Source: Minisyncoccota bacterium
GTDB taxonomy: Bacteria; Patescibacteriota; Minisyncoccia; Minisyncoccales; CSSED10-335
DNA length: 64,000 bases
Assembly (NCBI GenBank): GCA_028701035.1
Contig: JAQVRO010000001.1
Location: 5,497 to 69,496 of the forward strand
Direction: 5' to 3'
The position numbers and the translations under genes are program-made. This document shows, piece after piece, positions 29,922 to 64,000 of the stretch; the stretch's first letter is position 1, and each line of letters starts with the position of its first letter. The notes under the pieces were generated by a model. It did no database searches. It saw nothing but the letters and a program-made list of their open reading frames with translations, and was not told the DNA's origin.

Positions 29922-30021
29922 TAACTACATACTAGTATATTTTTTAACTCAGGTCAAGACTTAGTCTTATCCAACGCAACGATAGCATGAAATGCCCCCC
30001 GCTTTCCAATACAAGATTCCA

Positions 30022-30148
30022 TTAAGGAGCTAAGCTCCTTAATCCAACCTCCTTAACCTATACTTCGCTTAATTAAGGAGCTTAGCTCCTTAATCCGACC
30101 TCCTTAATTTCGTTAAGGGGCTTAGCGCCTTAATCTAGGCTCCTTAAG
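30022..30148. repeat. three tandem REP-like palindromic units. Each is a TTAAGGRGCT-N-AGCKCCTTAA core plus a TCYRACCTCCTTAA tail.
   Basis: Cores at 30022..30042, 30074..30094 and 30114..30134 read directly. Same family as the repeats at 53914, 56879, 56930, 57668, 57813 and inside the RAYT gene. Confidence 0.65.
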
Positions 30149-30189
30149 ACAATCTTATTTTCATACTCATTACTGGATTAAAAAATACT

Positions 30190-30702
30190 CTACAAAAAAC
30201 CTAAACTCTTAAAAGATGTTTCGTAAACTTTAAGCACCTCTCTCACATTATCTTCGGTAAGTTTAAAATCTGGCTCTTGGATTATAGAATTTCTGGTTTT
30301 TCTAACTTCTCTTAATTCGTTGATATTAGCAATATCAATTGATGTTAATCTCTCTACTTTTTCTTCGGTTGTTTCTTCAGTATAACCCATAAACTTAAGC
30401 ATATCATCTAATAGTGCATCTGCTTCAATAACAGCAAGCTTGTATTCCGACTCAATCCCAGTATCAATCTTCTTTAAAATCTTTTTCCATTCTTTAGCGT
30501 ATTTATTGCTACCATAGGGTTTAAACATTACAAACTCAACAATATCTTCCCAAAATCTAAAACGAATCCAACTAGTTGTTGCCAAAGAGTAGAATATTAT
30601 AAAAACAAAGAATACCGACAATCCAATAAAAAGAACTCTCGCTCCTAGATAAATATATAGATAAGGATAAGGTATTAAAGATGGATCTATTAAATATTCC
30701 AT
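30190..30702 (-). CDS. hypothetical membrane protein (170 aa)
   Basis: ORF track. Two N-terminal hydrophobic helices. Overlaps the gatA start by 13 nt. Confidence 0.4.
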   Translation of the reverse strand: MEYLIDPSLIPYPYLYIYLGARVLFIGLSVFFVFIIFYSLATTSWIRFRFWEDIVEFVMFKPYGSNKYAKEWKKILKKIDTGIESEYKLAVIEADALLDDMLKFMGYTEETTEEKVERLTSIDIANINELREVRKTRNSIIQEPDFKLTEDNVREVLKVYETSFKSLGFL

Positions 30703-50863: not shown

Positions 50864-53842
50864 TTAAAATTTAAGGTCTAAGTCAGAGATATCAACTTCC
50901 TTTGGTTTTTCCTCTTTTTTAGTTTCAACTATTTTTTTGTCTTGTTGTTTATCCTCTGGCTCTTTTTGTTCTTCCTTAACTTCAATCTTTTTTTCAGCTA
51001 TAGCATCCTTTCTCTTGGCTTCTTGTTCTTCTTGGGCTCTCTTCTTAGCTTCGGCTTCTTTTTTTTGTTGCTCTATCTTTTTCAAGTAATCCTCGGCTTG
51101 TTCGTATATTGATTTAGCAGAGAAAAATCCAGCTTTCTTTTCAGGTTTGGTAGCTTTAGTTAATACTTCCTTAAATGCAGTAGCACTTTCTTCTAGCTTA
51201 TGACTATTATACATAGAAACTGCATTTTTGAAAAGACTATTAATTTCTAATTCTTTTTCTTTATCGACTTGTGGCCTCTCCTGTTGGACTTTAGCTATAA
51301 CTTCTCTTCTTTTAGATTCTTGTTCTTCTTGGGCTCTCTTCTTAGCTTCAGCTTCTTTTTTTTGTTGTTCTATCTTTTTCAAGTAATCTTCAGCTTGCTC
51401 GTATATTGATTTAGCAGAGAAAAATCCAGCTTTCTTTTCAGGCTTTGAGGCTTTAGTTAATACCTCTTTGAATGCAGTAGCACTTTCTTCTAACTTATGA
51501 CTGTTATACATAGAAACTGCATTTTTGAAAAGACTATTAATTTCTAATTCTTTATTTTTCTTTACTTCTTCTGCTTCTTTCTTTTGTTTTATCTTAAGAG
51601 CTTCTTCGGATTTTTTAAGATATTCTTCGGCTTGTTCATATAATGTTTTGGCAGAAAATAGTCCAGATTTTTTTTCGGGCTTAGGGTCTTTCTCCATTAC
51701 CTTTTTGAAACAAACTATACTTTCTTCTATCTTTTGATGATTATACAAAGATACCGCATTATTAAAAAGATTTTTAATTTCTAATTCTTTCTTTTTCTGG
51801 TCCTCCAACTCTTCTTGAGCTTTCTTCTTAGCCTCAGCCTCGGCTTTTTCTTTGGCGATTCTCTCGGCTTCAATTTTCTTCATTGCTTCTTCCCTGGCAC
51901 GCCTTTCTTCCTCTTGCCTCTTCTTAGCTTCAGCCTCAGCTCTTTGTTTATTCTCTTCTTCTTGTTTTCTCCATCTAAGTTCTTTTTCTGCCTTAATTAT
52001 ATAGTTTTCAGCTTTAAGTTTAAGAGAAATTCCTTTATCTTTAGATAAAGATACAAATATGTCTGGGTTTTGGTTGATTTTTTCTAATTTATTTAAAACA
52101 CTATTAAAGCCAACCAAGCTCTCTTCGAATTTACCTTGATCGAATAGATTAACCGAATCATCTATTATCTTGTTTAACTCTTGACGAACAAGCTCTTCTT
52201 TAGCTTTTCTTTCAAACTCATATTCAATTTCTTTTTTAGCCTCCTCTTTAGCTCTTCTTTCAATCTCCCGCCTTTCTGCATCTTGTTTTATCTTTGATAT
52301 TTGATTTTCAGCTTTTAAATATATTGGGTGATTTTTGTCTAGCTTGCTCATTAGTTGCTGAAACCCTTTCATGCAACTATCTAAGTCTCCATTTTGGTAT
52401 AGATTATTGCATCGCTCAAATTCATTAACAAGTTCTTTTTCTTTCTCTTCTTGGGCTCTTCTTGCTTCTTCCATTGATCTTTGCTCTTCTAATTCTTTTT
52501 GTTTTCTTAATTCTTCTGCCTCTTGAATACGCTTCTTCTCTTCTTCTTGCCTCTTCCACCTAATATCTTTCTCTGCTTTCAAGATGTAGTTCTCTGCTTT
52601 GAGTTTAAAAGATACTCCCGCGTCGGCTAGTGAAGTAAATTCGTTTAGCTTAGATAATACATTTTTAAAAGATACAATACTCTCTTCAAGTTTGCCTGAT
52701 TCGTAGAGAGAAATACCTTCAGCTAAAATGGAATTGAGCTCGACTCTTTGTTGTTCTTGTAGCTGGCGTTGCCTAGCTAGTTCTGCTTCCCTTTCTAGTC
52801 TTTCTTGTTCTTCTTTTTTAGCTCTTTCTTCTTGGGCTCTTCTTTCTTCTTCTTGCCTCTTCCACCTAATATCTTTCTCTGCTTTCAAGATGTAGTTCTC
52901 TGCTTTGAGTTTAAAAGACACTCCCTCGTCGGCTAGTGAAGTAAATTCGTTTAGCTTAGATAATACATTTTTAAAAGATACAATACTTTCTTCGAGTTTG
53001 CCTGATTCGTAGAGAGAAATACCTTCAGTTAAAATGGAATTAAGCTCAGCTCTTTGTTGTTCTTGTAGCTGGCGTTGCCTAGCTATTTCTGCTTCCTTTT
53101 CTAGTCTTTCTTGTTCTTCTTTTTTAGCTCTTTCTTCTTGAGCTCTTCTCGCTTCTTCTATTGCTCTTTGTTCCTCTAATTCTTTTTGTCTTCTTAATTC
53201 TTCTGCCTCTTGAGCCATTCTTCTTTCTTCTTCTTCTTTTTGTTGCTTAAGAATTCTGTGCTCTTCGTGCATCTTTTCGAGATCAATAGCACTATCAAGA
53301 TCTCTTAAGTTCTTTGTTAAAGTGTTAAGTTCTATTAAAGCCTTATCTGTTTTTTGTTTTAACTCAGCGATATTAGATTGTTCAACGCTATAATTCTCAG
53401 TTATTCTTTCAATGTTTTGAGCTCTTTTAGATATTTGACTTTCTAGTTGACCTACCTTCTCTTCTATTGCCCATCTTTTATCTTCTAGCTCTCTTCTTTT
53501 GTCTACCAATGCCCATCTTTCACGCTCAATCTTTCTCTTCTTTTCTATGTCATCAGTAGATGTTTCTTGGTTTTCAATATTCTCTTTTTCTTTATCGAGA
53601 ACTTCTTTTTCTTTTAAGATATATTCTATTTCTTTCGAAAGATTAGCTTTCTCGTCAACATCCTTAGTCATTGCTAATTCTTCAGCTTCTTTTTCCCTAA
53701 GAGCACTGTTTAGATATTCGTCTTTTACTTTTTTGAGTTCACTTAAACGCTCTGCTTCTTTTTGCAGAAGCGAAGAGTTTTGCTCAATTGATTTTTTTTG
53801 CAACTCCAACTCTTTTATTTTACTGTTGGTGATTTCTTGCAT
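50864..53842 (-). CDS. giant coiled-coil repeat protein (992 aa) with E/K/R/Q-rich heptad regions. Single TPR-like modules (SLYESGKLEESIVSFKNVL, SMYNSHKLEESATAFKEVL) are embedded between charged linkers. No signal peptide.
   Basis: ORF track. Two protein-level tandem duplications are mirrored by near-identical DNA repeats. Confidence 0.6.
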   Translation of the reverse strand: MQEITNSKIKELELQKKSIEQNSSLLQKEAERLSELKKVKDEYLNSALREKEAEELAMTKDVDEKANLSKEIEYILKEKEVLDKEKENIENQETSTDDIEKKRKIERERWALVDKRRELEDKRWAIEEKVGQLESQISKRAQNIERITENYSVEQSNIAELKQKTDKALIELNTLTKNLRDLDSAIDLEKMHEEHRILKQQKEEEERRMAQEAEELRRQKELEEQRAIEEARRAQEERAKKEEQERLEKEAEIARQRQLQEQQRAELNSILTEGISLYESGKLEESIVSFKNVLSKLNEFTSLADEGVSFKLKAENYILKAEKDIRWKRQEEERRAQEERAKKEEQERLEREAELARQRQLQEQQRVELNSILAEGISLYESGKLEESIVSFKNVLSKLNEFTSLADAGVSFKLKAENYILKAEKDIRWKRQEEEKKRIQEAEELRKQKELEEQRSMEEARRAQEEKEKELVNEFERCNNLYQNGDLDSCMKGFQQLMSKLDKNHPIYLKAENQISKIKQDAERREIERRAKEEAKKEIEYEFERKAKEELVRQELNKIIDDSVNLFDQGKFEESLVGFNSVLNKLEKINQNPDIFVSLSKDKGISLKLKAENYIIKAEKELRWRKQEEENKQRAEAEAKKRQEEERRAREEAMKKIEAERIAKEKAEAEAKKKAQEELEDQKKKELEIKNLFNNAVSLYNHQKIEESIVCFKKVMEKDPKPEKKSGLFSAKTLYEQAEEYLKKSEEALKIKQKKEAEEVKKNKELEINSLFKNAVSMYNSHKLEESATAFKEVLTKASKPEKKAGFFSAKSIYEQAEDYLKKIEQQKKEAEAKKRAQEEQESKRREVIAKVQQERPQVDKEKELEINSLFKNAVSMYNSHKLEESATAFKEVLTKATKPEKKAGFFSAKSIYEQAEDYLKKIEQQKKEAEAKKRAQEEQEAKRKDAIAEKKIEVKEEQKEPEDKQQDKKIVETKKEEKPKEVDISDLDLKF
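51005..51595. repeat. intragenic tandem duplication, 2 copies of ~296 bp, >90% identical
   Basis: Identical strings such as ttcttgttcttcttgggctctcttcttagcttc recur at 51022 and 51318. Each copy contains a T9 or T10 homopolymer. Confidence 0.7.
52480..53110. repeat. intragenic tandem duplication, 2 copies of ~308 bp, >90% identical
   Basis: tcttcttgcctcttccacctaatatctttctctgctttcaagatgtagttctctgctttgagtttaaaaga recurs at about 52545 and 52851. Confidence 0.7.
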
Positions 53843-53861
53843 GTTTATTATTTATATTTCT

Positions 53862-53889
53862 ATTATATACAATGTATATTTTTTTGCAA
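53862..53889 (-). promoter_or_regulatory. near-consensus sigma70 promoter TTGCAA-16-TATAAT driving the coiled-coil gene. Part of a ~75-bp cassette repeated at 57716..57790.
   Basis: On the minus strand, -35 at 53889..53884 and -10 at 53867..53862, with ATG at 53842. About 85% identical to the cassette upstream of the RAYT gene. Confidence 0.55.
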
Positions 53890-53913
53890 TAGTTCTTGCT
53901 GTTTAGCTTCTGA

Positions 53914-53934
53914 TTAAGGCGCTAAGCGCCTTAA
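53914..53934. repeat. REP-like palindrome TTAAGGCGCTAAGCGCCTTAA
   Basis: Perfect 10-1-10 palindrome immediately upstream of the promoter cassette. Confidence 0.65.
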
Positions 53935-54078
53935 TCTGCCATTGCCTTATTTTAAATATTTCAATATTATTTTATCACAAAAAATTAAAAAATCTAGCAC
54001 CTGATTAATTGGAGAAATAATTTATATGTTAATTCTCTGATATTAATTAATAAAATAATAAAAACGGCATCCACATAC

Positions 54079-56805: not shown

Positions 56806-56968
56806 AATACAATTTGATTAAATTCTAACAAATATAATACAATTATTAATACTTATTTAATCTCTATACTTCGCTTAATTAAGGCGCCTGGCGCCTTAAT
56901 CTAACCTCCTTAATTTATACTTCGCTTAATTAAGGCGCCTGGCGCCTTAATCTGAACTCCTTAATACT

Positions 56969-57640
56969 TTAATCCTTTTCTATTAAATATTTATCTATAT
57001 CTTTTTTATTACGGCTTTCCTCAATCACCATTTTGACAAACTTTTTATACTCCACTACCGAATTTGACCCTTGTGCTTCAGAAAAATGATCAAGAATAAT
57101 GTCTTTACTCGCAACCAAATCGTCTGGCCTTTCTCCTAAGAAATATCCATAGCTTGTCCATGGATAATCTTCAACATCAGCTATTTTATGAATTTGTGAA
57201 TTACCATTGATATAGGCAGACAGCCAAAGAAGATAATCATCATTATCAATATGAATTGCTTTGTAAGCTCCTTGGAATAATCTACCTGGGCGATTGTATT
57301 TTTTATTAATAAAATTAGTATAGCTGTGTCCTATTTTGTGTAAAAATTTAGAAATACCATCATCGGTTAATTGTTGTAATATCAAATGATAATGATTAGG
57401 TAATAAATTATAAGCATTTATTGTGACTATTTTTTCTAATCCCTCTAAGAAGGAGCTTAGCTCCTTAATATCTTTACGAGCCACAGATGCCCTTTCTTCG
57501 TAATAAGATTTATTATTAAAATCCTTTAAGCCTCTTTTAAACATTTTATAATCTTCGTCTTCTCTAAAAAGCAATGAATCAGCTACAGCTCGATTATAAA
57601 CATGATAGTATTCACCATTGGTAAATTTTATTTTTCTCAT
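56969..57640 (-). CDS. REP-associated tyrosine transposase (RAYT; IS200/IS605-like Y1 HuH transposase)
   Basis: N-terminal YHVYNRA motif, HuH motif LPNHYHLILQ, downstream conserved Tyr region RLFQGAYKAIHID. 223 aa. Flanked by REPs. Confidence 0.7.
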   Translation of the reverse strand: MRKIKFTNGEYYHVYNRAVADSLLFREDEDYKMFKRGLKDFNNKSYYEERASVARKDIKELSSFLEGLEKIVTINAYNLLPNHYHLILQQLTDDGISKFLHKIGHSYTNFINKKYNRPGRLFQGAYKAIHIDNDDYLLWLSAYINGNSQIHKIADVEDYPWTSYGYFLGERPDDLVASKDIILDHFSEAQGSNSVVEYKKFVKMVIEESRNKKDIDKYLIEKD

Positions 57641-57748
57641 ATAACTTTTTTCGTTAAGGAGCCTGGATTAAGGAGCCAGGCTCCTTAATCTAACCTCCTT
57701 AATTTGTTGCTGTTGGTTATTGCTTGCATATTTATTATTTATATCTCC

Positions 57749-57776
57749 ATTATATATAATGTGTATTCTTTTGCAA
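57749..57776 (-). promoter_or_regulatory. sigma70 promoter TTGCAA-16-TATAAT upstream of the RAYT gene (second copy of the cassette)
   Basis: On the minus strand, -35 at 57776..57771 and -10 at 57754..57749. The transcript would traverse the REP at 57706..57654 before the RAYT ATG at 57640. Confidence 0.5.
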
Positions 57777-57849
57777 GCGTTCAGTTGTTTGGTTCTTGGT
57801 TAAGGAGCCTGGGTTAAGGAGCCAGGCTCCTTAATCCGACCTCCTTAAT

Positions 57850-59547
57850 TTATTTGGTGGTCCAGGTGGGGCCGTCTCCAACAGGTAAGAGGGTTCCGTG
57901 GTTGTCGTTTCCGCTTCTGTCGTAGGCGGTTTCGCCTTGACCTTCGTTTAATGGCCAGTGGCCAACGAGGCCGTTTCTGATATCGTAGCCTTTGTAGAGT
58001 TGCTCTACTTCTTCTGCAGAGAGAGCTCGGTTGTATATACGGACATCGTCGATAAGACCGTCCCAAAAATAAATATCAATACCCCCCACTCTTAAAGGTC
58101 CTACTATATCAATACTTGTAGAATCGACCCTACTTCCTATAAAAGAATTGTCAATAAATAGATTTGCATTAGATCCATTTCTAGAAAAAAATAAATAATG
58201 CCACTCTCCATCATTGTAATTCTCAGTTGTTGTTATTCTATTCGTACCTCCCCCCATCCAATAAACCCAAACTCCGTAAGGCTCATTATTAAAATTAAAA
58301 GATATATTATTAGCACTATAACTTGATCCAAAATTTAAAGCATGCATCCTCTTATTTGATATTTCGCTTTTAAACCAGAAACCAACCGAAAGATTATTTG
58401 TCCCAAAATCCCAGGCAGAATCATTCGGAATATTCGCATAATCGTTAGTGCCGTCGAAGTTTAGGGCGATTTCGGGGGCGCCGGTGGAAACTTCTTTGGT
58501 TTCGTCTTCAGTGGATTTTAAGGAAATGTTTTTGGTGACGGGGTTTTGCCAAATGGTATATTTGCTAGAATATTCGTAGTTGTATAGGTCTTGGATTTCT
58601 TCTGCTGATAGTGCTCGGTTATAGATGCGGACATCGTCGATAAGACCTTCCCATGACTGAGTTGTACTCCCTGGAAGGACTTGCCCAAATACATCATTTT
58701 CAGTATTATCGCCTAAAGTATCCAGAGATCCTGTTTCAGTTCCAGTTAAATTGCCATTTTTATAAGCTTTATAGGTTGTGCCATTTTTTACCCATGTAAT
58801 GTGTGTCCACTCATTTTCGGAGATAGTTCCAAAGTTTCCTCCTGTCCAGATGTCAATCCAATTACTGCCGGAGCCACTATAAAAAGAAATATTCTCTCCG
58901 TATATACCGACATAAAGAACCCCTTCCTTAGAAAATACTCTGTGATGTCCTGATGAAATTGGAGTCTTTACCCATGCTCCCAAAGACACCTCTGTTAAGT
59001 TGCTAGGGATTTTTACATCTCCTAAATCAATATAATCGTTATCTCCATCAAAATCTAAAGCTTCGCCCATTTTACCATCTACCCATGTAGGCCCATTAAA
59101 CAAAGTCCCATGGTTTTCGTTGCCACTGGCGTCATAGGCAGTTGTTCCACTTCCCTCGTCGAACTTCCAGTGTCCAACAAGCCCATCGGTAATATTACTT
59201 CCAGATATACTTCCCTCTTTTGGATCAACTAAATACTTACTTAAGTAGTTTGGTTTTAAGCAATCATACAAGTCATACTCTCCTGGGCCTGTGCCGATTG
59301 CAGTAAACTTATCTTGTGGAAGTGGTCCACTAGGACAATTCCAACCTCTATCGTTTTTTACTTTCTGTTGCACAGAGAGTAATATACTATTTAAATCTGA
59401 TTCTCTTTGAGAATCTCTTTGCGCTTTGATTTTTCCTACTGGGTCTACTGCTACCACAAAGAAAACTCCAAATATTATCATAACGCCAACGACAATCAAT
59501 AGCTCTATATATGTAAACCCTTTTGTTTTGTATAAATATTCTTTCAT
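57850..59547 (-). CDS. pilin-like protein with type IV pilin N-terminus and two LamG (concanavalin-like, Laminin_G_3) domains. The 3' end appears truncated by REP insertion.
   Basis: KGFTYIELLIVVGVMIIF. Two copies of GLVGHW..EGSG..AYD.SGN.NHGTL....W.......DFDG.NDY and LIDDVRIYNRALSAEE. The gene ends ...GPTWTTK, and its TAA stop is the first triplet of the REP tail. Confidence 0.7.
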   Translation of the reverse strand: MKEYLYKTKGFTYIELLIVVGVMIIFGVFFVVAVDPVGKIKAQRDSQRESDLNSILLSVQQKVKNDRGWNCPSGPLPQDKFTAIGTGPGEYDLYDCLKPNYLSKYLVDPKEGSISGSNITDGLVGHWKFDEGSGTTAYDASGNENHGTLFNGPTWVDGKMGEALDFDGDNDYIDLGDVKIPSNLTEVSLGAWVKTPISSGHHRVFSKEGVLYVGIYGENISFYSGSGSNWIDIWTGGNFGTISENEWTHITWVKNGTTYKAYKNGNLTGTETGSLDTLGDNTENDVFGQVLPGSTTQSWEGLIDDVRIYNRALSAEEIQDLYNYEYSSKYTIWQNPVTKNISLKSTEDETKEVSTGAPEIALNFDGTNDYANIPNDSAWDFGTNNLSVGFWFKSEISNKRMHALNFGSSYSANNISFNFNNEPYGVWVYWMGGGTNRITTTENYNDGEWHYLFFSRNGSNANLFIDNSFIGSRVDSTSIDIVGPLRVGGIDIYFWDGLIDDVRIYNRALSAEEVEQLYKGYDIRNGLVGHWPLNEGQGETAYDRSGNDNHGTLLPVGDGPTWTTK

Positions 59548-59551
59548 ATTA

Positions 59552-60799
59552 TTAATATGGTTTTGTACTTTCGTATAATAACTTTACTTCGCTTGGAGAC
59601 AAAGCTCGGTTGTATATACGAACATCGTCGATTTGTCCGTTGAAATAATCGACCAGAGAAGACCCGATTAACAATGGATAATTATTATTTATATTATATG
59701 GCCCTGTGCCTGTTTTTCTGATTGTTGTTAGTGACTTAGACTCCCCATCAACATAAACATAATGATTATCCCCTTTTCTTATAGCAACAACATTGTGCCA
59801 ATTACCATCTATAATGTCATCAGTTGTATACAGACGCACTTCATTGTCTGTGTCAGCTCGAACCCACCAACTTATTTTTTTTGATTCACTATGAACTCCA
59901 CCGAATGTCACTGTACCAATATAAATACTAACAAAATTGTATGGATCTATGGACTGTCTTTTTAATACAAGGCCCGCTATCTGGTCATTATTCAGTGCTA
60001 AAAACCATAACGATATTGACAAATCACTTATATTTGGTCTTAATTCAGGAGTATCTCCAATCTCCACATAATCCCCAACTCCATCAAACTCCAGTGCTCT
60101 ATCTTCTTCAAAAAACCTATTCTCCGACCAATCTGGTGCTCCAACTAATGTTCCATGATTATCGTTTCCACTAAAGTCATAGGCTGTTAGTCCTTTACCT
60201 TCGTTAAATGTCCAGTGGCCTACAAGTCCATCTGTTAAAAGCTTATCCGAAGGCTTTGAATTCTTGGCTCTTAAAGTATAAGCAGATATGAATTGGTCTG
60301 AAAAGTCATATTCTGGATAATTCTGCGGATTATAATACGAGGCTCCAATGGTTATTTGTACCGAACCAGGATCTTTAGGAAGACCAACATTTCTAAAGGT
60401 AAGACTATCAATCACTATACTTGATGCTGTTATTTTCTCCTGAGGATAACCTGCCACCTTCATTACAATAGCTCCGTCTTCAAGCCAAAAGAGAACTGGA
60501 TCGTTTTCATTGTTTGTTCTAAGCCATAACATATTTCCTGTTCTACCAGGTAATACTATCGTATCTGCATTCCTTATCTCTGCACCAATCTTTTGCATTG
60601 CAAAACGAACATTGTATGTTACCTCTTCTACAATTTCAGAATTAGAACTAGATGATAAAACATTGACTGCAATACCACCCATAGCCAAAAGAATACCCGA
60701 AAGAAGAAATGTATAAACAAGAAACTCAATAAAAGTAAAGCCTCTCTCCCTTTTCTTATTTAAATTATATTCTTTTAGAATCATAGTATTACCTAACAA
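59552..60799 (-). CDS. pilin-like protein with LamG domain (paralog 2)
   Basis: RGFTFIEFLV prepilin motif. GLVGHWTFNEGKGLTAYDFSGNDNHGTL...FDGVGDYVEIG...IDDVRIYNRALSPSEV. Confidence 0.7.
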   Translation of the reverse strand: MLGNTMILKEYNLNKKRERGFTFIEFLVYTFLLSGILLAMGGIAVNVLSSSSNSEIVEEVTYNVRFAMQKIGAEIRNADTIVLPGRTGNMLWLRTNNENDPVLFWLEDGAIVMKVAGYPQEKITASSIVIDSLTFRNVGLPKDPGSVQITIGASYYNPQNYPEYDFSDQFISAYTLRAKNSKPSDKLLTDGLVGHWTFNEGKGLTAYDFSGNDNHGTLVGAPDWSENRFFEEDRALEFDGVGDYVEIGDTPELRPNISDLSISLWFLALNNDQIAGLVLKRQSIDPYNFVSIYIGTVTFGGVHSESKKISWWVRADTDNEVRLYTTDDIIDGNWHNVVAIRKGDNHYVYVDGESKSLTTIRKTGTGPYNINNNYPLLIGSSLVDYFNGQIDDVRIYNRALSPSEVKLLYESTKPY

Positions 60800-61892
60800 C
60801 TTCTATTCTGCCTTGACGACCAACATTAATTTTAACAGAATCGCTACCGTCACTTAGCTCAATAATATTATCATCTACACCATCAAGCCCAGATTCATAT
60901 ATCAACCTTATTTCTTCCGCTGTAAGAGCACGATTGTAGATGCGGATGTCGTCAATAGAGCCGTTAAAAAATTGAGCGTAACCAGATAACGAACCAAGAT
61001 AAAGATTGGCACTTCCCCAATTATTCATGGTTCCACTAAAGGCTATAGTAGCTACCTGCATTCCGTCTATATATAAAAATTTATTCGTTCCGTTCCAGAC
61101 CCCTACCACATTGTGCCAATTTCCATCATTATAAGTTAATGGTGAAGTTAAAGTATTTGAATTGCCCGTATCCGTTAGAGTATAAAACTTTATAATATTA
61201 TTAGTAGAATCATCAACGCCAATAGCGTAACTACTATGAGAAGTATCTAAACGACGAAAGATAAAACAGCGAGTATTTTGAGAAGTATTAAATTTTATCC
61301 ATTGCGATATTGAAACTTGTGTTGTAATTGAATCTAAGCTTGTTCCACTTCCGCAATTCACATAATCGTCTGTTCCATCGAAATCTAGCGCCCCGCCAAC
61401 CTTACCATTTGCCCATGTAGGATCGTTAACCAAAGTTCCGTGGTTCTCCTGACCACTTAAATCGTGTGCTACGCCTCCCTCCCCTTCGTTCATTGTCCAA
61501 TGACCAACCAAGCCCTCAATTTGGGGTTTACCGCTATTATCAAAAACAATCTCTGGAGCTCCAGCAATAGTTATGTCTGAATAAAGTTCAAACACTTCGT
61601 CATATAAAGGATCTCTTTCTTCATAAGAGTTACCTTTAAAAGATGTATATGTTTCTGGTGTAAAATATACTCCCCAAAGGCTATCATCTCTACCTTTCAT
61701 TGACTTTGCCTGTGTTTGTCTTAAAACACTTAATAACTGAGAAGCTTCTTCTTCAACGGATTGTTTTTTTAAAGAACCAAAGCTTATTGGTATTGTCATA
61801 GCTGACAACATTGCAATCATTGAAACAACAAGCATAAGCTCAATGAAAGTGAACCCTTTTTGTCTTTTGCTTTTTTTTATAATCCAAAACAT
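60789..61892 (-). CDS. pilin-like protein with LamG domain (paralog 3)
   Basis: KGFTFIELMLVVSMIAML. GLVGHWTMNEGEGGVAHDLSGQENHGTL...FDGTDDYVNCG...IDDIRIYNRALTAEEI. Confidence 0.7.
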   Translation of the reverse strand: MFWIIKKSKRQKGFTFIELMLVVSMIAMLSAMTIPISFGSLKKQSVEEEASQLLSVLRQTQAKSMKGRDDSLWGVYFTPETYTSFKGNSYEERDPLYDEVFELYSDITIAGAPEIVFDNSGKPQIEGLVGHWTMNEGEGGVAHDLSGQENHGTLVNDPTWANGKVGGALDFDGTDDYVNCGSGTSLDSITTQVSISQWIKFNTSQNTRCFIFRRLDTSHSSYAIGVDDSTNNIIKFYTLTDTGNSNTLTSPLTYNDGNWHNVVGVWNGTNKFLYIDGMQVATIAFSGTMNNWGSANLYLGSLSGYAQFFNGSIDDIRIYNRALTAEEIRLIYESGLDGVDDNIIELSDGSDSVKINVGRQGRIEVVR

Positions 61893-61904
61893 ATTTTAGT
61901 GATA

Positions 61905-64000
61905 TTAACGGTTAACATGATACTCTAAACCTCTTTGGTACAAAAACTTTATTTCGTCTTCTGTGAGAGCACGGTTGTAGATGCGAACATCGTCTATAAG
62001 GCCGTTAGTATAATCAACATTAGCCTGATCTCTTTTTCCGATCCATAAGTCATCATCACCAGCAACAACTGCTTTAGGTGTTCCAGAATAAGAACCATTA
62101 ATATATTGTCCATCTATATAAAGCGATAACGTAGTTCCACTCCAAGTCATCATATAATGATGCCAATTATTATCTTGTAGAACTGTATGTCTTTTGTAGT
62201 AACCATCACTCGCCATCATGTCTATCGTTCCGTTATTATGGGATGAATAATAAACCTGATAACCTTCTAATTGATCATGGTTTGCATTCTTTTTCGAAAT
62301 CATGAAACTGCTGTCTATTCCAACTGTTCCTTGAAATTTACTCCACAATGATATTGATAAATCGCTATCTAGCGCCAAACTCGCATCATTTCCCACATCC
62401 ACATAATTTCCGACTCCATCGAAGTCCAAAGATTTGTCGTGGCGGCCATCTACCCATCTAGTGTATCTTATGATAACAATGCCAGAACCACCAGAACCAC
62501 CATCTCCAATGGGAGTAGTGTCGCTATGAGCACCTCCTCCTCCTCCACCACCACCTGTATTGGACAAAGCATCTTCTCCTTTCTGTTCTTCACTACTTGA
62601 AGTGTCATATCCATCACCTCCGTCACCACCACCTCCAGATCCTCCCTCCCCAGGGTTAACTCTATCTATAGTGGCATCGTTTCCCCCAATTGCACCACCT
62701 CCACCACCTGCGAACCAACCATATTCTCCATAATTATCTCCGAAAGTATGACCAAAATAAAGACCGTCTCCACCATCTTGAGCAACTGTTCCATCTGAAG
62801 AACCTCCTGGTTCTGAAGCACCTCCACCACCTGCCGAACTACCACCAGGACCATAATAATCCCCCCCCTTATTTCCTTGATTAAGGGTTCCTGCGCCACC
62901 CTCAACAGGATGATCAACATGCCTTGCACCTCCTCCACCGGATCCTCCACTATGTGGACTATTCTCAGAGATATTGTCAATGCTTGCACCCCTTCCACCC
63001 CCTACTGCTACAAGTGTATCGAATACTGAATTTTCACCATCTTGAGGAGCAGTGTCATTGTACCCACCTGCCCCGCCGTCACCGACATTAATTGAGATAC
63101 TACTTCCTGAGACTACATTGTATGAATCATCGAAAATCAACCCTCCAGCTCCTCCGCCGCCGCCGGCAGTATGATGATAGGTGCCACCATTATTAAGTCC
63201 ACCTCCTCCGCCGCCGCCGACAACAAGAACATCTACTTCCGTTACTCCTTCTGGCACAGTCCAGGTGTGACTACCTACTGTGGTAAAAGCTTCTATACCA
63301 ACATACTTTCCTTTAGAGCCACCTCTCTTGGCTCCATAAATAGTGCCATGATTATTATTCCCAGAACTATCAACAGCTAAATCACCAAATGTTTCATCCA
63401 TATCCCAATGACCGACTAAACCATCTGTGATGTTTTCTGTTTCGTTATAAAGTTTTTGAATTTCTGTTTCTGACAAAGCTCGGTTATAAATGCGGACATC
63501 ATCAATGAGACCATCAAAAAAACTAATCCAATCGCTACCGTTATACCTGCCCCCTATAGTAAAATAATTAGCGCCTTTTTTTAAAGTAGAATCTGATATT
63601 ATAGCACTATTTACAAAAACTCCATCAACATAAATACTGGCTTCTTTGGTAGAGCTATCAAACACACCAACAAAATGAATCCAATCATTAGTTTTTGAAA
63701 TTCCAGAACTAATCTCATAATAACCAGTGCTATCTCTAACAAGAAAAATAAACTCTCCACTTTCATTTATTCTTAAATCATACTGCTCCATTGAATTCTG
63801 TGCTCTTCCAGCGATAATAGTCCATGTATTCGGAACAGTATTTGCTTTTACCCAAGACGAAATAGTAACAGATCCATCTACTTCTGTTTCTGAAGAAGCT
63901 CCCATTGTCACATAATCGTCCACTCCGTCAAAATCTAAATATGATTCTCTATCGTCCGATGCCTCGTTATAAACAGCAGTGCCTCTGCCCTCATTCATTG
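61905..64000 (-). CDS. LamG-domain protein with a long Gly-rich low-complexity region (paralog 4), 5' end off window
   Basis: The ORF is open to the window edge. Three LamG-like modules (LDFDGVDDYV..IDDVRIYNRALSETEI; GLVGHWDMDETFGDLAVDSSGNNNHGTI; LDFDGVGNYVDVG..IDDVRIYNRALTEDEI). G-rich 62450..63260 with a G8 tract. Confidence 0.6.
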   Translation of the reverse strand, partial: MNEGRGTAVYNEASDDRESYLDFDGVDDYVTMGASSETEVDGSVTISSWVKANTVPNTWTIIAGRAQNSMEQYDLRINESGEFIFLVRDSTGYYEISSGISKTNDWIHFVGVFDSSTKEASIYVDGVFVNSAIISDSTLKKGANYFTIGGRYNGSDWISFFDGLIDDVRIYNRALSETEIQKLYNETENITDGLVGHWDMDETFGDLAVDSSGNNNHGTIYGAKRGGSKGKYVGIEAFTTVGSHTWTVPEGVTEVDVLVVGGGGGGGLNNGGTYHHTAGGGGGAGGLIFDDSYNVVSGSSISINVGDGGAGGYNDTAPQDGENSVFDTLVAVGGGRGASIDNISENSPHSGGSGGGGARHVDHPVEGGAGTLNQGNKGGDYYGPGGSSAGGGGASEPGGSSDGTVAQDGGDGLYFGHTFGDNYGEYGWFAGGGGGAIGGNDATIDRVNPGEGGSGGGGDGGDGYDTSSSEEQKGEDALSNTGGGGGGGGAHSDTTPIGDGGSGGSGIVIIRYTRWVDGRHDKSLDFDGVGNYVDVGNDASLALDSDLSISLWSKFQGTVGIDSSFMISKKNANHDQLEGYQVYYSSHNNGTIDMMASDGYYKRHTVLQDNNWHHYMMTWSGTTLSLYIDGQYINGSYSGTPKAVVAGDDDLWIGKRDQANVDYTNGLIDDVRIYNRALTEDEIKFLYQRGLEYHVNR

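Follow-up and report, generated by a model that had tools for sequence, protein, structure and literature searches.

A probable REP/RAYT-type system of repeats and a Y1 gene in a Patescibacteria (CPR) genome

The locus and its host

The stretch analysed here, called the window below, is a 64,000-nt segment of a Minisyncoccota genome (contig JAQVRO010000001.1 of assembly GCA_028701035.1, positions 5,497 to 69,496), and our subject is a RAYT-like HuH/Y1 gene of 223 amino acids (aa) at 56969..57640, together with the family of short palindromes that surrounds it. We put at roughly three in four the probability that gene and palindromes form a REP/RAYT-type system (a 'REPtron'), that is, a population of repetitive extragenic palindromes (REPs) with its REP-associated tyrosine transposase (RAYT), in a genome of the Patescibacteria, or candidate phyla radiation (CPR). 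The gene and all repeat features whose window coordinates are given below lie on the minus strand.

An earlier reading of the same DNA, made without database searches and referred to here as the sequence-only reading, had described the host as 'CPR-like', and this proved sound. GC content in the window is 33-38%, the product of the neighbouring comM-like gene has 93% identity to proteins that carry the name Patescibacteria/Pacebacteria, and homologues of the open reading frame (ORF) come nearly all from Patescibacteria metagenome-assembled genomes, the best GTDB representative being 59% identical. The closest relative among the loci that we compared (numbered L001 onward) is L001, at 96% DNA identity, followed by L002-L007 and L152 at 86% protein identity, L008 at 68% and L010 at 59%. 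In L001, L002-L007 and L152 the gene occupies the same locus as in the window, upstream of comM-yraN-dprA; overall, the relatives with this synteny are 96% or ~77-90% identical.

A Y1/HuH protein of the RAYT kind

In the ORF listing of the window the 223-aa ORF carries NHYHLIL at aa 82-88, just as the sequence-only reading had reported. The HuH residues are H83-Y-H85, the catalytic tyrosine is Y143 in YINGNS, and H83, H85 and Y143 are invariant across 30 aligned homologues. A Y1_Tnp profile search had been suggested as a check on the RAYT identity, and the Pfam profile (PF01797) matches aa 61-146 at 31.1 bits (E 2.8e-7), above the gathering cutoff of 23; the N-terminal strand falls outside this match because of an insertion there. 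A phmmer search of the protein against PDB sequences gave no relevant match, 4ER8 included. The AlphaFold2 model (pLDDT 88.7) has a strand at E83-90 and helices at H134-145 and H58-66, and its top Foldseek match in the PDB is 4er8_A, the E. coli RAYT with REP (E 3.5e-7, target TM-score 0.69), followed by the IS608, ISDra2 and IS200 TnpA proteins at E values of about 1e-4 to 1e-3. The link to 4ER8 thus comes through fold comparison and not through sequence.

Taken together, the motifs and the model support the view that this is a Y1/HuH enzyme of the RAYT kind, and to this extent the identity first proposed is borne out by both the Pfam score and the best structural match. Judging from the model, the protein would be a single-domain HuH/Y1 endonuclease/transferase of single-stranded DNA, fold-level kin of both E. 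coli TnpA-REP and the IS200/IS605 transposases. The ratio of nonsynonymous to synonymous divergence (dN/dS) against relatives is 0.07-0.19 overall, with 0.12 at dS 0.6 and 0.07 at dS ~2.8, and we therefore conclude that the protein has been kept by selection. The gene is present once in the 64-kb window, with no tnpB beside it. With 4,254 clusters at 50% identity (E <= 1e-10) its family is a large one, and some homologues in IMG are already named 'REP element-mobilizing transposase RayT'; for the gene described here the label 'transposase' alone is an inadequate annotation.

Repeat units around and inside the gene

The 21-nt palindrome TTAAGGNGCYNRGCNCCTTAA has eight exact matches in the window, at 30022, 30073, 30113, 53914, 56879, 56930, 57668 and 57814, and a ninth with two mismatches at 57448-57468 within the ORF, as compared with 0.01 matches expected from shuffles. 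Two exact copies lie on each side of the gene and the rest at two other intergenic sites. All of the copies listed in the sequence-only reading (those flanking the gene, three at 30022..30148, one at 53914..53934 and the one in the ORF) are therefore present, and the outcome that it had named as fatal, a palindrome found nowhere else, does not apply, given the two additional sites in the window and the copies in related genomes. The extra half-site tail that it had described, (A/C)CTCCTTAA, follows all four of the gene-flanking palindromes (56904-56914, 56955-56965, 57693-57702 and 57839-57848).

The architecture of the repeats differs from the one first proposed. The palindrome has no polarity of its own, and it is the asymmetric flanks that give it an orientation. 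In gene sense a unit reads TTAAGGAGG-TYRGA-TTAAGGNGCYWRGCNCCTTAA and then continues with TTAAGCGAAGTATAG or with a fourth half-site, CCCAGGCTCCTTAA. Judged by these flanks all eight copies in the window face one direction, which contradicts the description of them as inverted copies, and the 'classic REPIN architecture' of inverted doublets is replaced here by direct units with a 51-bp tandem periodicity. The cognate hairpin itself is 21-25 nt long, with a 9-11-bp stem, a 3-nt loop and the foot GATTAAGG/CCTTAATC, and it is set in a unit of ~51 nt whose 5' portion is a direct copy of the left arm (TTAAGGAGG) plus the short linker TYRGA. Folded as single-stranded DNA the units reach -10 to -17 kcal/mol (z -4.2 to -7). 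A reading of the 51-bp arrays as a CRISPR array was considered and ruled out, as the 'spacers' are themselves conserved (TTAAGCGAAGTATAG + TTAAGGAGGTYRGA).

Downstream of the gene the proximal unit, 51 bp at 56916..56966, begins 3-4 nt past the RAYT stop codon and reads TTAAGGAGT-TCAGA-TTAAGGCGCCAGGCGCCTTAA-TTAAGCGAAGTATA in gene sense (-10.4 kcal/mol, z -4.2); a tandem 51-bp copy of it follows at 56865..56915 (-11.7 kcal/mol, z -5.0). The two upstream units are compound and fold as nested 'double-foot' hairpins. The gene-proximal one, at 57654..57702, has four half-sites and ends 13 nt ahead of the RAYT ATG (-17 kcal/mol, z -7.0), and the distal one, at 57800..57848, begins ~2 nt past the stop codon of a 565-aa pilin-like/LamG-like gene (-15.1 kcal/mol, z -5.5). 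Inside the ORF, the degenerate copy at 57448..57468 is read in frame as I-K-E-L-S-S-F-L (aa 58-65) and encodes a helical insertion between helix alphaA and the pre-HuH strand, corresponding to helix H58-66 of the model. It folds weakly (-6 kcal/mol, z -1.6). The peptide KELSSFL is nearly conserved among homologues and duplicated in some, and an identical 17-mer, AAGGAGCTAAGCTCCTT, is found at this site in L001, L008 and L010 despite dS values above 1.4 for L008 and L010.

The sequence-only reading had also drawn attention to AAGGAGG as a Shine-Dalgarno (SD) core within the palindrome. The exact heptamer is found in the tail half-site, whereas the palindrome arms are AAGGAG(C) or AAGGCG(C). A special role for such a core is not borne out, since the cognate hairpins of other lineages are mostly not SD-like (TGTAGACGTC, TGACAAGG and ACTTGGAAGC, for example). 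The tail half-site also resembles the 3' end of 16S rRNA, a gene that is absent from the window, and a putative SD/anti-SD relation of this kind is likewise not general across lineages.

Inheritance and dispersal of the units

The same palindrome family, with differing stem variants, flanks the gene in L001, L002-L007 and L152, and palindromes also flank it in L008, where the genomic context is different, and in L010. In L008 the gene lies between recA and rpsR-ssb, is flanked by TTAAGGAGCTAAGCTCCTTAA and contains two in-frame copies within the ORF. Between the window and L001 the 97-nt spacer that separates the upstream units is identical and the differences in the region all fall within REP units; both upstream hairpins show the same compensatory switch from C-G to T-A (GGAGCCTGGCTCC versus GGAGCTTAGCTCC). 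The differences in this pair of hairpins are a concerted change.

Away from the gene, the window holds a solitary unit, GATTAAGGCGCTTAGCGCCTTAATC, at 53912..53936 (-12.9 kcal/mol, z -4.9), between the dprA-like gene and the promoter of a 992-aa gene, and this unit is kept at the same place in L001. Three tandem units at 30022..30148 lie between the stop codon of the gene at 30190..30702 and a tRNA-Met promoter; this triplet is absent from the orthologous spacer of the 81%-identical L130 and L144.

Dispersal is much more evident in metagenomic data. A scan of JGI metagenome contigs with GATTAAGGNGCNNNGCNCCTTAA returned 65 stretches, only three of which contain a homologue of the gene. Long contigs of a different genome are similar to the window at the level of the REPs only, which they carry in many clusters, and one 93-kb contig has ~17 copies. 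Counting copies with no more than two mismatches in 565 kb, 121 of 129 are intergenic and five of the eight genic ones fall within RAYT ORFs. The units are oriented like both of their neighbouring genes in 38 cases and opposite to both in 12, often begin 3-20 nt past the upstream stop codon, and have a modal tandem spacing of 51 nt. Stem position N7:N15 is a Watson-Crick pair in 102 of 132 copies (C-G 47, A-T 45, G-C 8, T-A 2), which shows that stems keep their pairing via compensatory changes. Because the copies are intergenic, dispersed and preserved in their pairing, 'repetitive extragenic palindrome' is an accurate name for them.

Hairpins across the wider Patescibacteria family

In 84 homologue loci, all with a complete ORF, we looked for perfectly paired hairpins whose stem is 8 bp or longer. 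A hairpin was found within 200 nt upstream of the ORF in 50 of the 84 loci, downstream in 42 and inside the ORF in 46. The hairpins are specific to their lineage (ACTTGGAGGTCGAACCTCCAAGT in L031, ACTTGGGAGCTCAACTCCCAAGT in L028, TGTAGACGTCCGACGTCTACA in L047 and TGACAAGGTCGAACCTTGTCA in L075) and have a common design, a ~10-bp stem with a 3-nt loop. The six loop-adjacent nucleotides are the same upstream and downstream of the gene in 25 of 33 loci (1.5% in a cross-locus control), and the same in an in-ORF hairpin and its own flank in 42 of 51 cases (control 1.7%). In one Moranbacteria genome (LBYD01) there are two paralogues, each with its own palindrome (L016 and L025). By these comparisons of sequence, hairpin and gene vary together from lineage to lineage.

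When mapped onto the protein alignment, the in-ORF hairpins fall into three groups: the insertion between alphaA and the pre-HuH strand, where the window carries IKELSSFL, a position just after the catalytic-tyrosine helix, and the C-terminal tail. Their reading frames vary between lineages, and it follows that the DNA, rather than the peptide, is the common element.

Several further dispersed palindrome families with a 10-bp stem and 3-nt loop were seen at L016, L025, L027, L029 and L084, among them TTCCAAGACTAAGTCTTGGAA (four copies), ACTTGGAAACTTAGTTTCCAAGT (three) and TGCCAAAGCCTTGCTTTGGCA (three); these are not the palindromes that flank the local Y1 gene. This suggests that there are several REP families per genome.

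Weighing the REP/RAYT reading

What is expected of a functional RAYT is that it is flanked by cognate REP hairpins and that the REP family is dispersed extragenically. Two units stand on each side of the gene in the window, with a like arrangement in relatives, and the family recurs at two further window sites and in 65 metagenome stretches. We have shown an intact gene that purifying selection maintains and that relatives carry in synteny, with its units on both flanks, in frame inside the gene and scattered through intergenic DNA, mostly far from any RAYT.

Several observations weigh against this reading. At 31.5 bits the protein is well short of the cutoff of 80 for NCBIfam NF047646, the equivalog for REP-associated tyrosine transposases, and a profile built from 30 family sequences found no solved Y1 enzyme among PDB sequences, 4ER8 included; membership in the canonical E. 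coli-type equivalog is therefore not supported. The GT[AG]G tag is not found at the 5' foot of the hairpin, where the flank is TYRGA or GA followed by TTAAGG. REPIN doublets are not found either: 26 oriented adjacent pairs are co-oriented, and nine scored as 'mixed' because they are the two feet of single double-foot palindromes. In most of the distant loci few hairpins of the same family occur within +/-10 kb away from the gene, and hairpins in many lineages may therefore be chiefly gene-linked, like the ends of an insertion sequence (IS), and not members of a large REP population. Numbers of REP and RAYT copies per genome are extrapolated from the window and the metagenome contigs, cleavage and re-joining are taken from the known Y1 chemistry of IS608/ISDra2 and E. 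coli TnpA-REP, and the co-orientation of units with genes would fit a role at the transcript level equally well.

The strongest competing idea, which we nevertheless think unlikely, is that the gene belongs to an autonomous IS200/IS605-like element of ~0.8-1 kb that transposes with the hairpins as its ends, in which case solitary hairpins would be scars of excision or insertion, or derivatives like miniature inverted-repeat transposable elements (MITEs). The protein has the same Y1 fold as the TnpA of IS608 and ISDra2 (both are matched by the model), the gene has subterminal hairpins on either side, at 0-40 nt from its start and stop in most of the 84 loci and with few same-family copies in the surrounding +/-10 kb, and a single-stranded chemistry on the lagging-strand template is presumed for both. 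The different context of the 68%-identical L008 (recA/rpsR-ssb) and the two paralogues in one genome also favour this idea. Against this, the gene keeps its chromosomal position in relatives at dS 0.6 with a dN/dS of 0.12, appears not to be multicopy (one copy in 64 kb, with no near-identical second copies seen and most protein clusters on one contig), has no adjacent tnpB, and at 223 aa is longer than the ~150 aa of the IS200 protein, with YINGNS in place of the Y...Q motif. Furthermore, the hairpins of the two sides belong to one family, are also found alone and far outnumber the genes, ~62 of the 65 metagenome stretches having no gene.

It is also conceivable, if quite improbable, that the hairpins are primarily RNA-level elements of the host (stabilisers of mRNA 3' ends, terminators, or modulators of translation that sequester an SD sequence) and that the link to Y1 is secondary. 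E. coli REPs have RNA-level roles, being stabilising, terminating and translation-modulating. The units are mostly co-oriented with both neighbours and often start 3-20 nt past a stop codon, 121 of 129 are extragenic, and the version in the window has TAAGGAGGT beside a hairpin with SD-like and anti-SD-like arms. However, there is no T-run in gene sense, and an intrinsic-terminator scan of the window called no intergenic REP unit; its sole REP-related call was the degenerate in-ORF copy, on the plus strand and thus antisense to the gene. The alternative named in the sequence-only reading, that the repeats are ordinary terminators, is not borne out by these results. A search of Rfam with the repeats and the composite element at 29945-30200 returned no family. 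Tandem arrays of up to 4-5 units would be needless for termination, the same hairpins stand in frame within the Y1 ORF and co-vary with Y1 across lineages, and their SD-likeness is not conserved in other lineages. An added RNA-level role may coexist with a REP/RAYT system.

That the palindromes are DNA-uptake-type signals or protein-binding sites tied to competence genes (comM, dprA, pilM, pilins) is very unlikely, for although the gene lies beside comM-yraN-dprA and pilus genes in this lineage, and Neisseria uptake sequences are often inverted pairs after genes, other lineages do not keep this competence neighbourhood, known uptake sequences are far denser than the roughly one cluster per 10-15 kb observed here, and every Y1 paralogue has a sequence of its own, even where two share a genome.

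Relation to known systems

REPs flanking RAYT genes, co-evolution of REP and RAYT, and single-copy vertical inheritance are established features of these systems (PMC6006769, PMC5581495). Compared with E. coli TnpA-REP (RAYT, YafM; subclass 2.2; REP/BIME; structure 4ER8), the protein described here has the same HuH/Y1 fold, with 4ER8 the best structural match, and in both cases a single gene, which here too is probably inherited vertically and in synteny under purifying selection, is flanked by cognate extragenic hairpins that are also dispersed in the genome. The differences are that here there is no match at the level of sequence, the score is below the NCBIfam equivalog cutoff and GT[AG]G is lacking; that the stems are short, perfect and 9-11 bp long with a 3-nt loop, in direct 51-bp arrays and not in alternating bacterial interspersed mosaic elements (BIMEs) or REPIN doublets; and that the protein, at 223 aa, has an extra helical insertion and a C-terminal tail.

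There is precedent for REPs inside the gene. For subclass 2.4, of Cyanobacteria and Bacteroidetes, in-frame REP insertions in tnpA-REP between HuH and Y have already been termed a 'unique feature' (PMC6006769). Subclass 2.4 (Bertels group 4; Quentin et al. 2018, PMC6006769) and the present family share frame-preserving in-gene REPs as well as 'double-foot' REPs. Here, however, the in-gene copies stand before HuH (aa ~58-66), just after the tyrosine helix and in the C-terminal tail, the REPs lack GTAG, and the protein motifs are FQ and YINGN/YVNLN in place of WQ and YIxNNP.

The protein motifs of our family are NH[YF]H, FQ in place of W[EQ], Y[IV]N(G/L)N and a W-S-S tail, with YIHLNP instead of Y[IV]N(G/L)N in more distant homologues only. 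They most resemble those of TnpA-Y1 subclass 2.1 (TIRYT; Bertels group 1), an assignment by motifs alone and not by phylogeny: NH[YF]H, FQ, the Y[IV]HLNP of the distant homologues, the S-S tail and the length of ~220-240 aa all match. The Class 2 TnpA-Y1 motif Y---NP is not found, the window having Y143-I-N-G-N-S and the family consensus being YVNGN/YVNLN. According to published descriptions, subclass 2.1 lacks REP-like sequences in its vicinity and bears a DnaA_C/HTH-like domain at the C-terminus (PMC6006769, PMC3733652), although some of the repeats that flank TIRYT genes are self-complementary and occur in moderate numbers (PMC3733652). In contrast, clear cognate hairpins are present here, and Pfam finds no DnaA_C/HTH domain in the protein.

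A further comparison is with the Rickettsia palindromic elements (RPE), which are ~100-150 bp long, have no linked Y1 gene and insert in many unrelated genes (cited in PMC3733652). Both are in-frame palindromic repeats within protein-coding genes of a reduced genome, but the in-frame copies described here are almost only in the Y1 gene (5 of 8 genic matches). In the body of papers open to our search, the only mention of RAYT or REP in CPR/Patescibacteria was an incidental KEGG annotation. In summary of these comparisons, in-gene REPs are already known, from RAYT subclass 2.4, and what is new is the CPR host clade, the non-GTAG hairpin, the direct 51-bp arrays and the in-gene hairpins at different recurrent positions.

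REP/RAYT systems are known mainly from Proteobacteria and Cyanobacteria, and no other system exemplifies so well the long-lived intragenomic replicators that are passed on vertically; their benefit or cost to the host is debated. CPR genomes are ~1 Mb in size and strongly streamlined. On our reading the range of these systems would extend to CPR bacteria, with an intact, selected gene and its own hairpin population, and either such systems persist where spare DNA is scarce or they are useful there. Most of the 84 loci have lineage-specific hairpins around, and often inside, the gene, which offers many natural pairs of protein and hairpin specificity, two of them in one genome, for the study of how Y1 enzymes read hairpins. 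A practical consequence is that REP repeats will fragment CPR metagenome assemblies.

A possible mechanism and the role of in-gene hairpins

By analogy with the Y1 enzymes above, we envisage that the protein binds its hairpin where this is extruded in single-stranded DNA. The likeliest place is the template of the lagging strand, which here would have the gene-sense sequence. Y143 would then cleave near the hairpin foot, and the strand would be re-joined elsewhere. Re-joining would be into TTAA-rich targets, such as those that stop codons and existing REPs supply; a TTAA-like target preference would explain both the positions just past stop codons and the tandem arrays. The same activity might homogenise the copies, those in its own gene included, and the compound hairpin between the duplicated promoter (described below) and the ATG probably keeps RAYT expression low.

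The plus-strand GC skew of the window is about -0.2 and rises to ~0 only where genes switch strand, so the minus strand is probably the leading one. If it is, the lagging-strand template exposes the units in their gene-sense form, which is what one expects for Y1 enzymes. Exposure on the lagging template probably coincides here with co-orientation to transcription, and the two are inseparable in this data.

A more speculative proposal, of which we are doubtful, is that the in-gene hairpins are functional, and not just tolerated, across a large Patescibacteria clade, either as protected 'master' REP copies or as a limiter of the gene's own expression. In the 'master' version, templated replacement by the RAYT would keep the in-gene REP at the same sequence as the copies in the flanks and elsewhere; in the limiter version the protein would bind the hairpin in its own gene or mRNA and so restrict its own expression. 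If this were true, streamlined CPR genomes would be maintaining a self-referential REP-RAYT partnership, possibly to the benefit of the host, and would be doing so in a Y1 subclass earlier thought to be without REPs.

Neighbouring features

The segment 57707..57782, between the two upstream REPs, is a duplicate (86% identity) of 53820-53895, where the 992-aa gene has its promoter (TTGCAA-16-TATAAT) and its first ~8 codons. The promoter scan has matches in both copies, at 57776->57749 and 53889->53862, and the duplicated promoter probably drives the RAYT gene. The duplication encodes a 14-codon mini-ORF, MQAITNSNKLRRLD*, which runs into the REP and ends there. L001 has the duplication and L002 does not, so that it is lineage-specific; it looks like a recent, REP-bounded event.

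The REP triplet is enclosed by the arms of a composite inverted-repeat element at 29945..30200 (-40.1 kcal/mol, z -5.8), the right arm of which is a ~60-nt module also found beside REPs in L106, L116, L119, L128 and L150. This module, GGAATYTTGTATTGGAAAGCGGGGGGYATTTCATGCTATCGTTGCGTTGGAYRAGACT, stands directly 3' of REP units in the window (29945-30200), L106 (2150-2400), L116 (7440-7560), L119 (13800-13900), L128 and L150 (690-790); in all six places it ends ~9 nt ahead of a -35-like hexamer. In two of these places, the window and L106, it pairs with a left arm, which puts the REPs at the tip of a long composite hairpin. The module has no Rfam match and is absent from the orthologous spacer of the 81%-identical L130 and L144. 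Possible identities are a mobile terminator-plus-promoter cassette and a MITE.

In L002 (220-235) the REP itself provides the stop codon of the upstream pilin-like gene (CCAGATTAAGGCGC), and the REP insertion has therefore remodelled the 3' end of that gene. In L130 (12816-12900) a second copy of the 3' half of the tRNA-Met gene nearby (ATAAGCTGTAGGTCGGAGGTTCGAG...) comes immediately after a REP unit, which resembles a scar of integration or rearrangement.

Upstream of the RAYT gene, the minus strand of 57850-64000 holds four consecutive large genes (565, 415, 367 and 697 aa) with common ~74-nt repeats (D3, D7, D10), the first of which has a type IV pilin-like N-terminus (KGFTYIELLIVV), as judged by eye. 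The region looks like a paralogous array of pilin-like/LamG-like surface proteins. The 992-aa gene (50864-53842, minus strand) contains internal tandem repeats of ~300 nt that are 90-96% identical (D1, D2, D9, D16); its homologues in L001 and L002 are 791-830 aa long, and the number of repeats therefore varies between close relatives.

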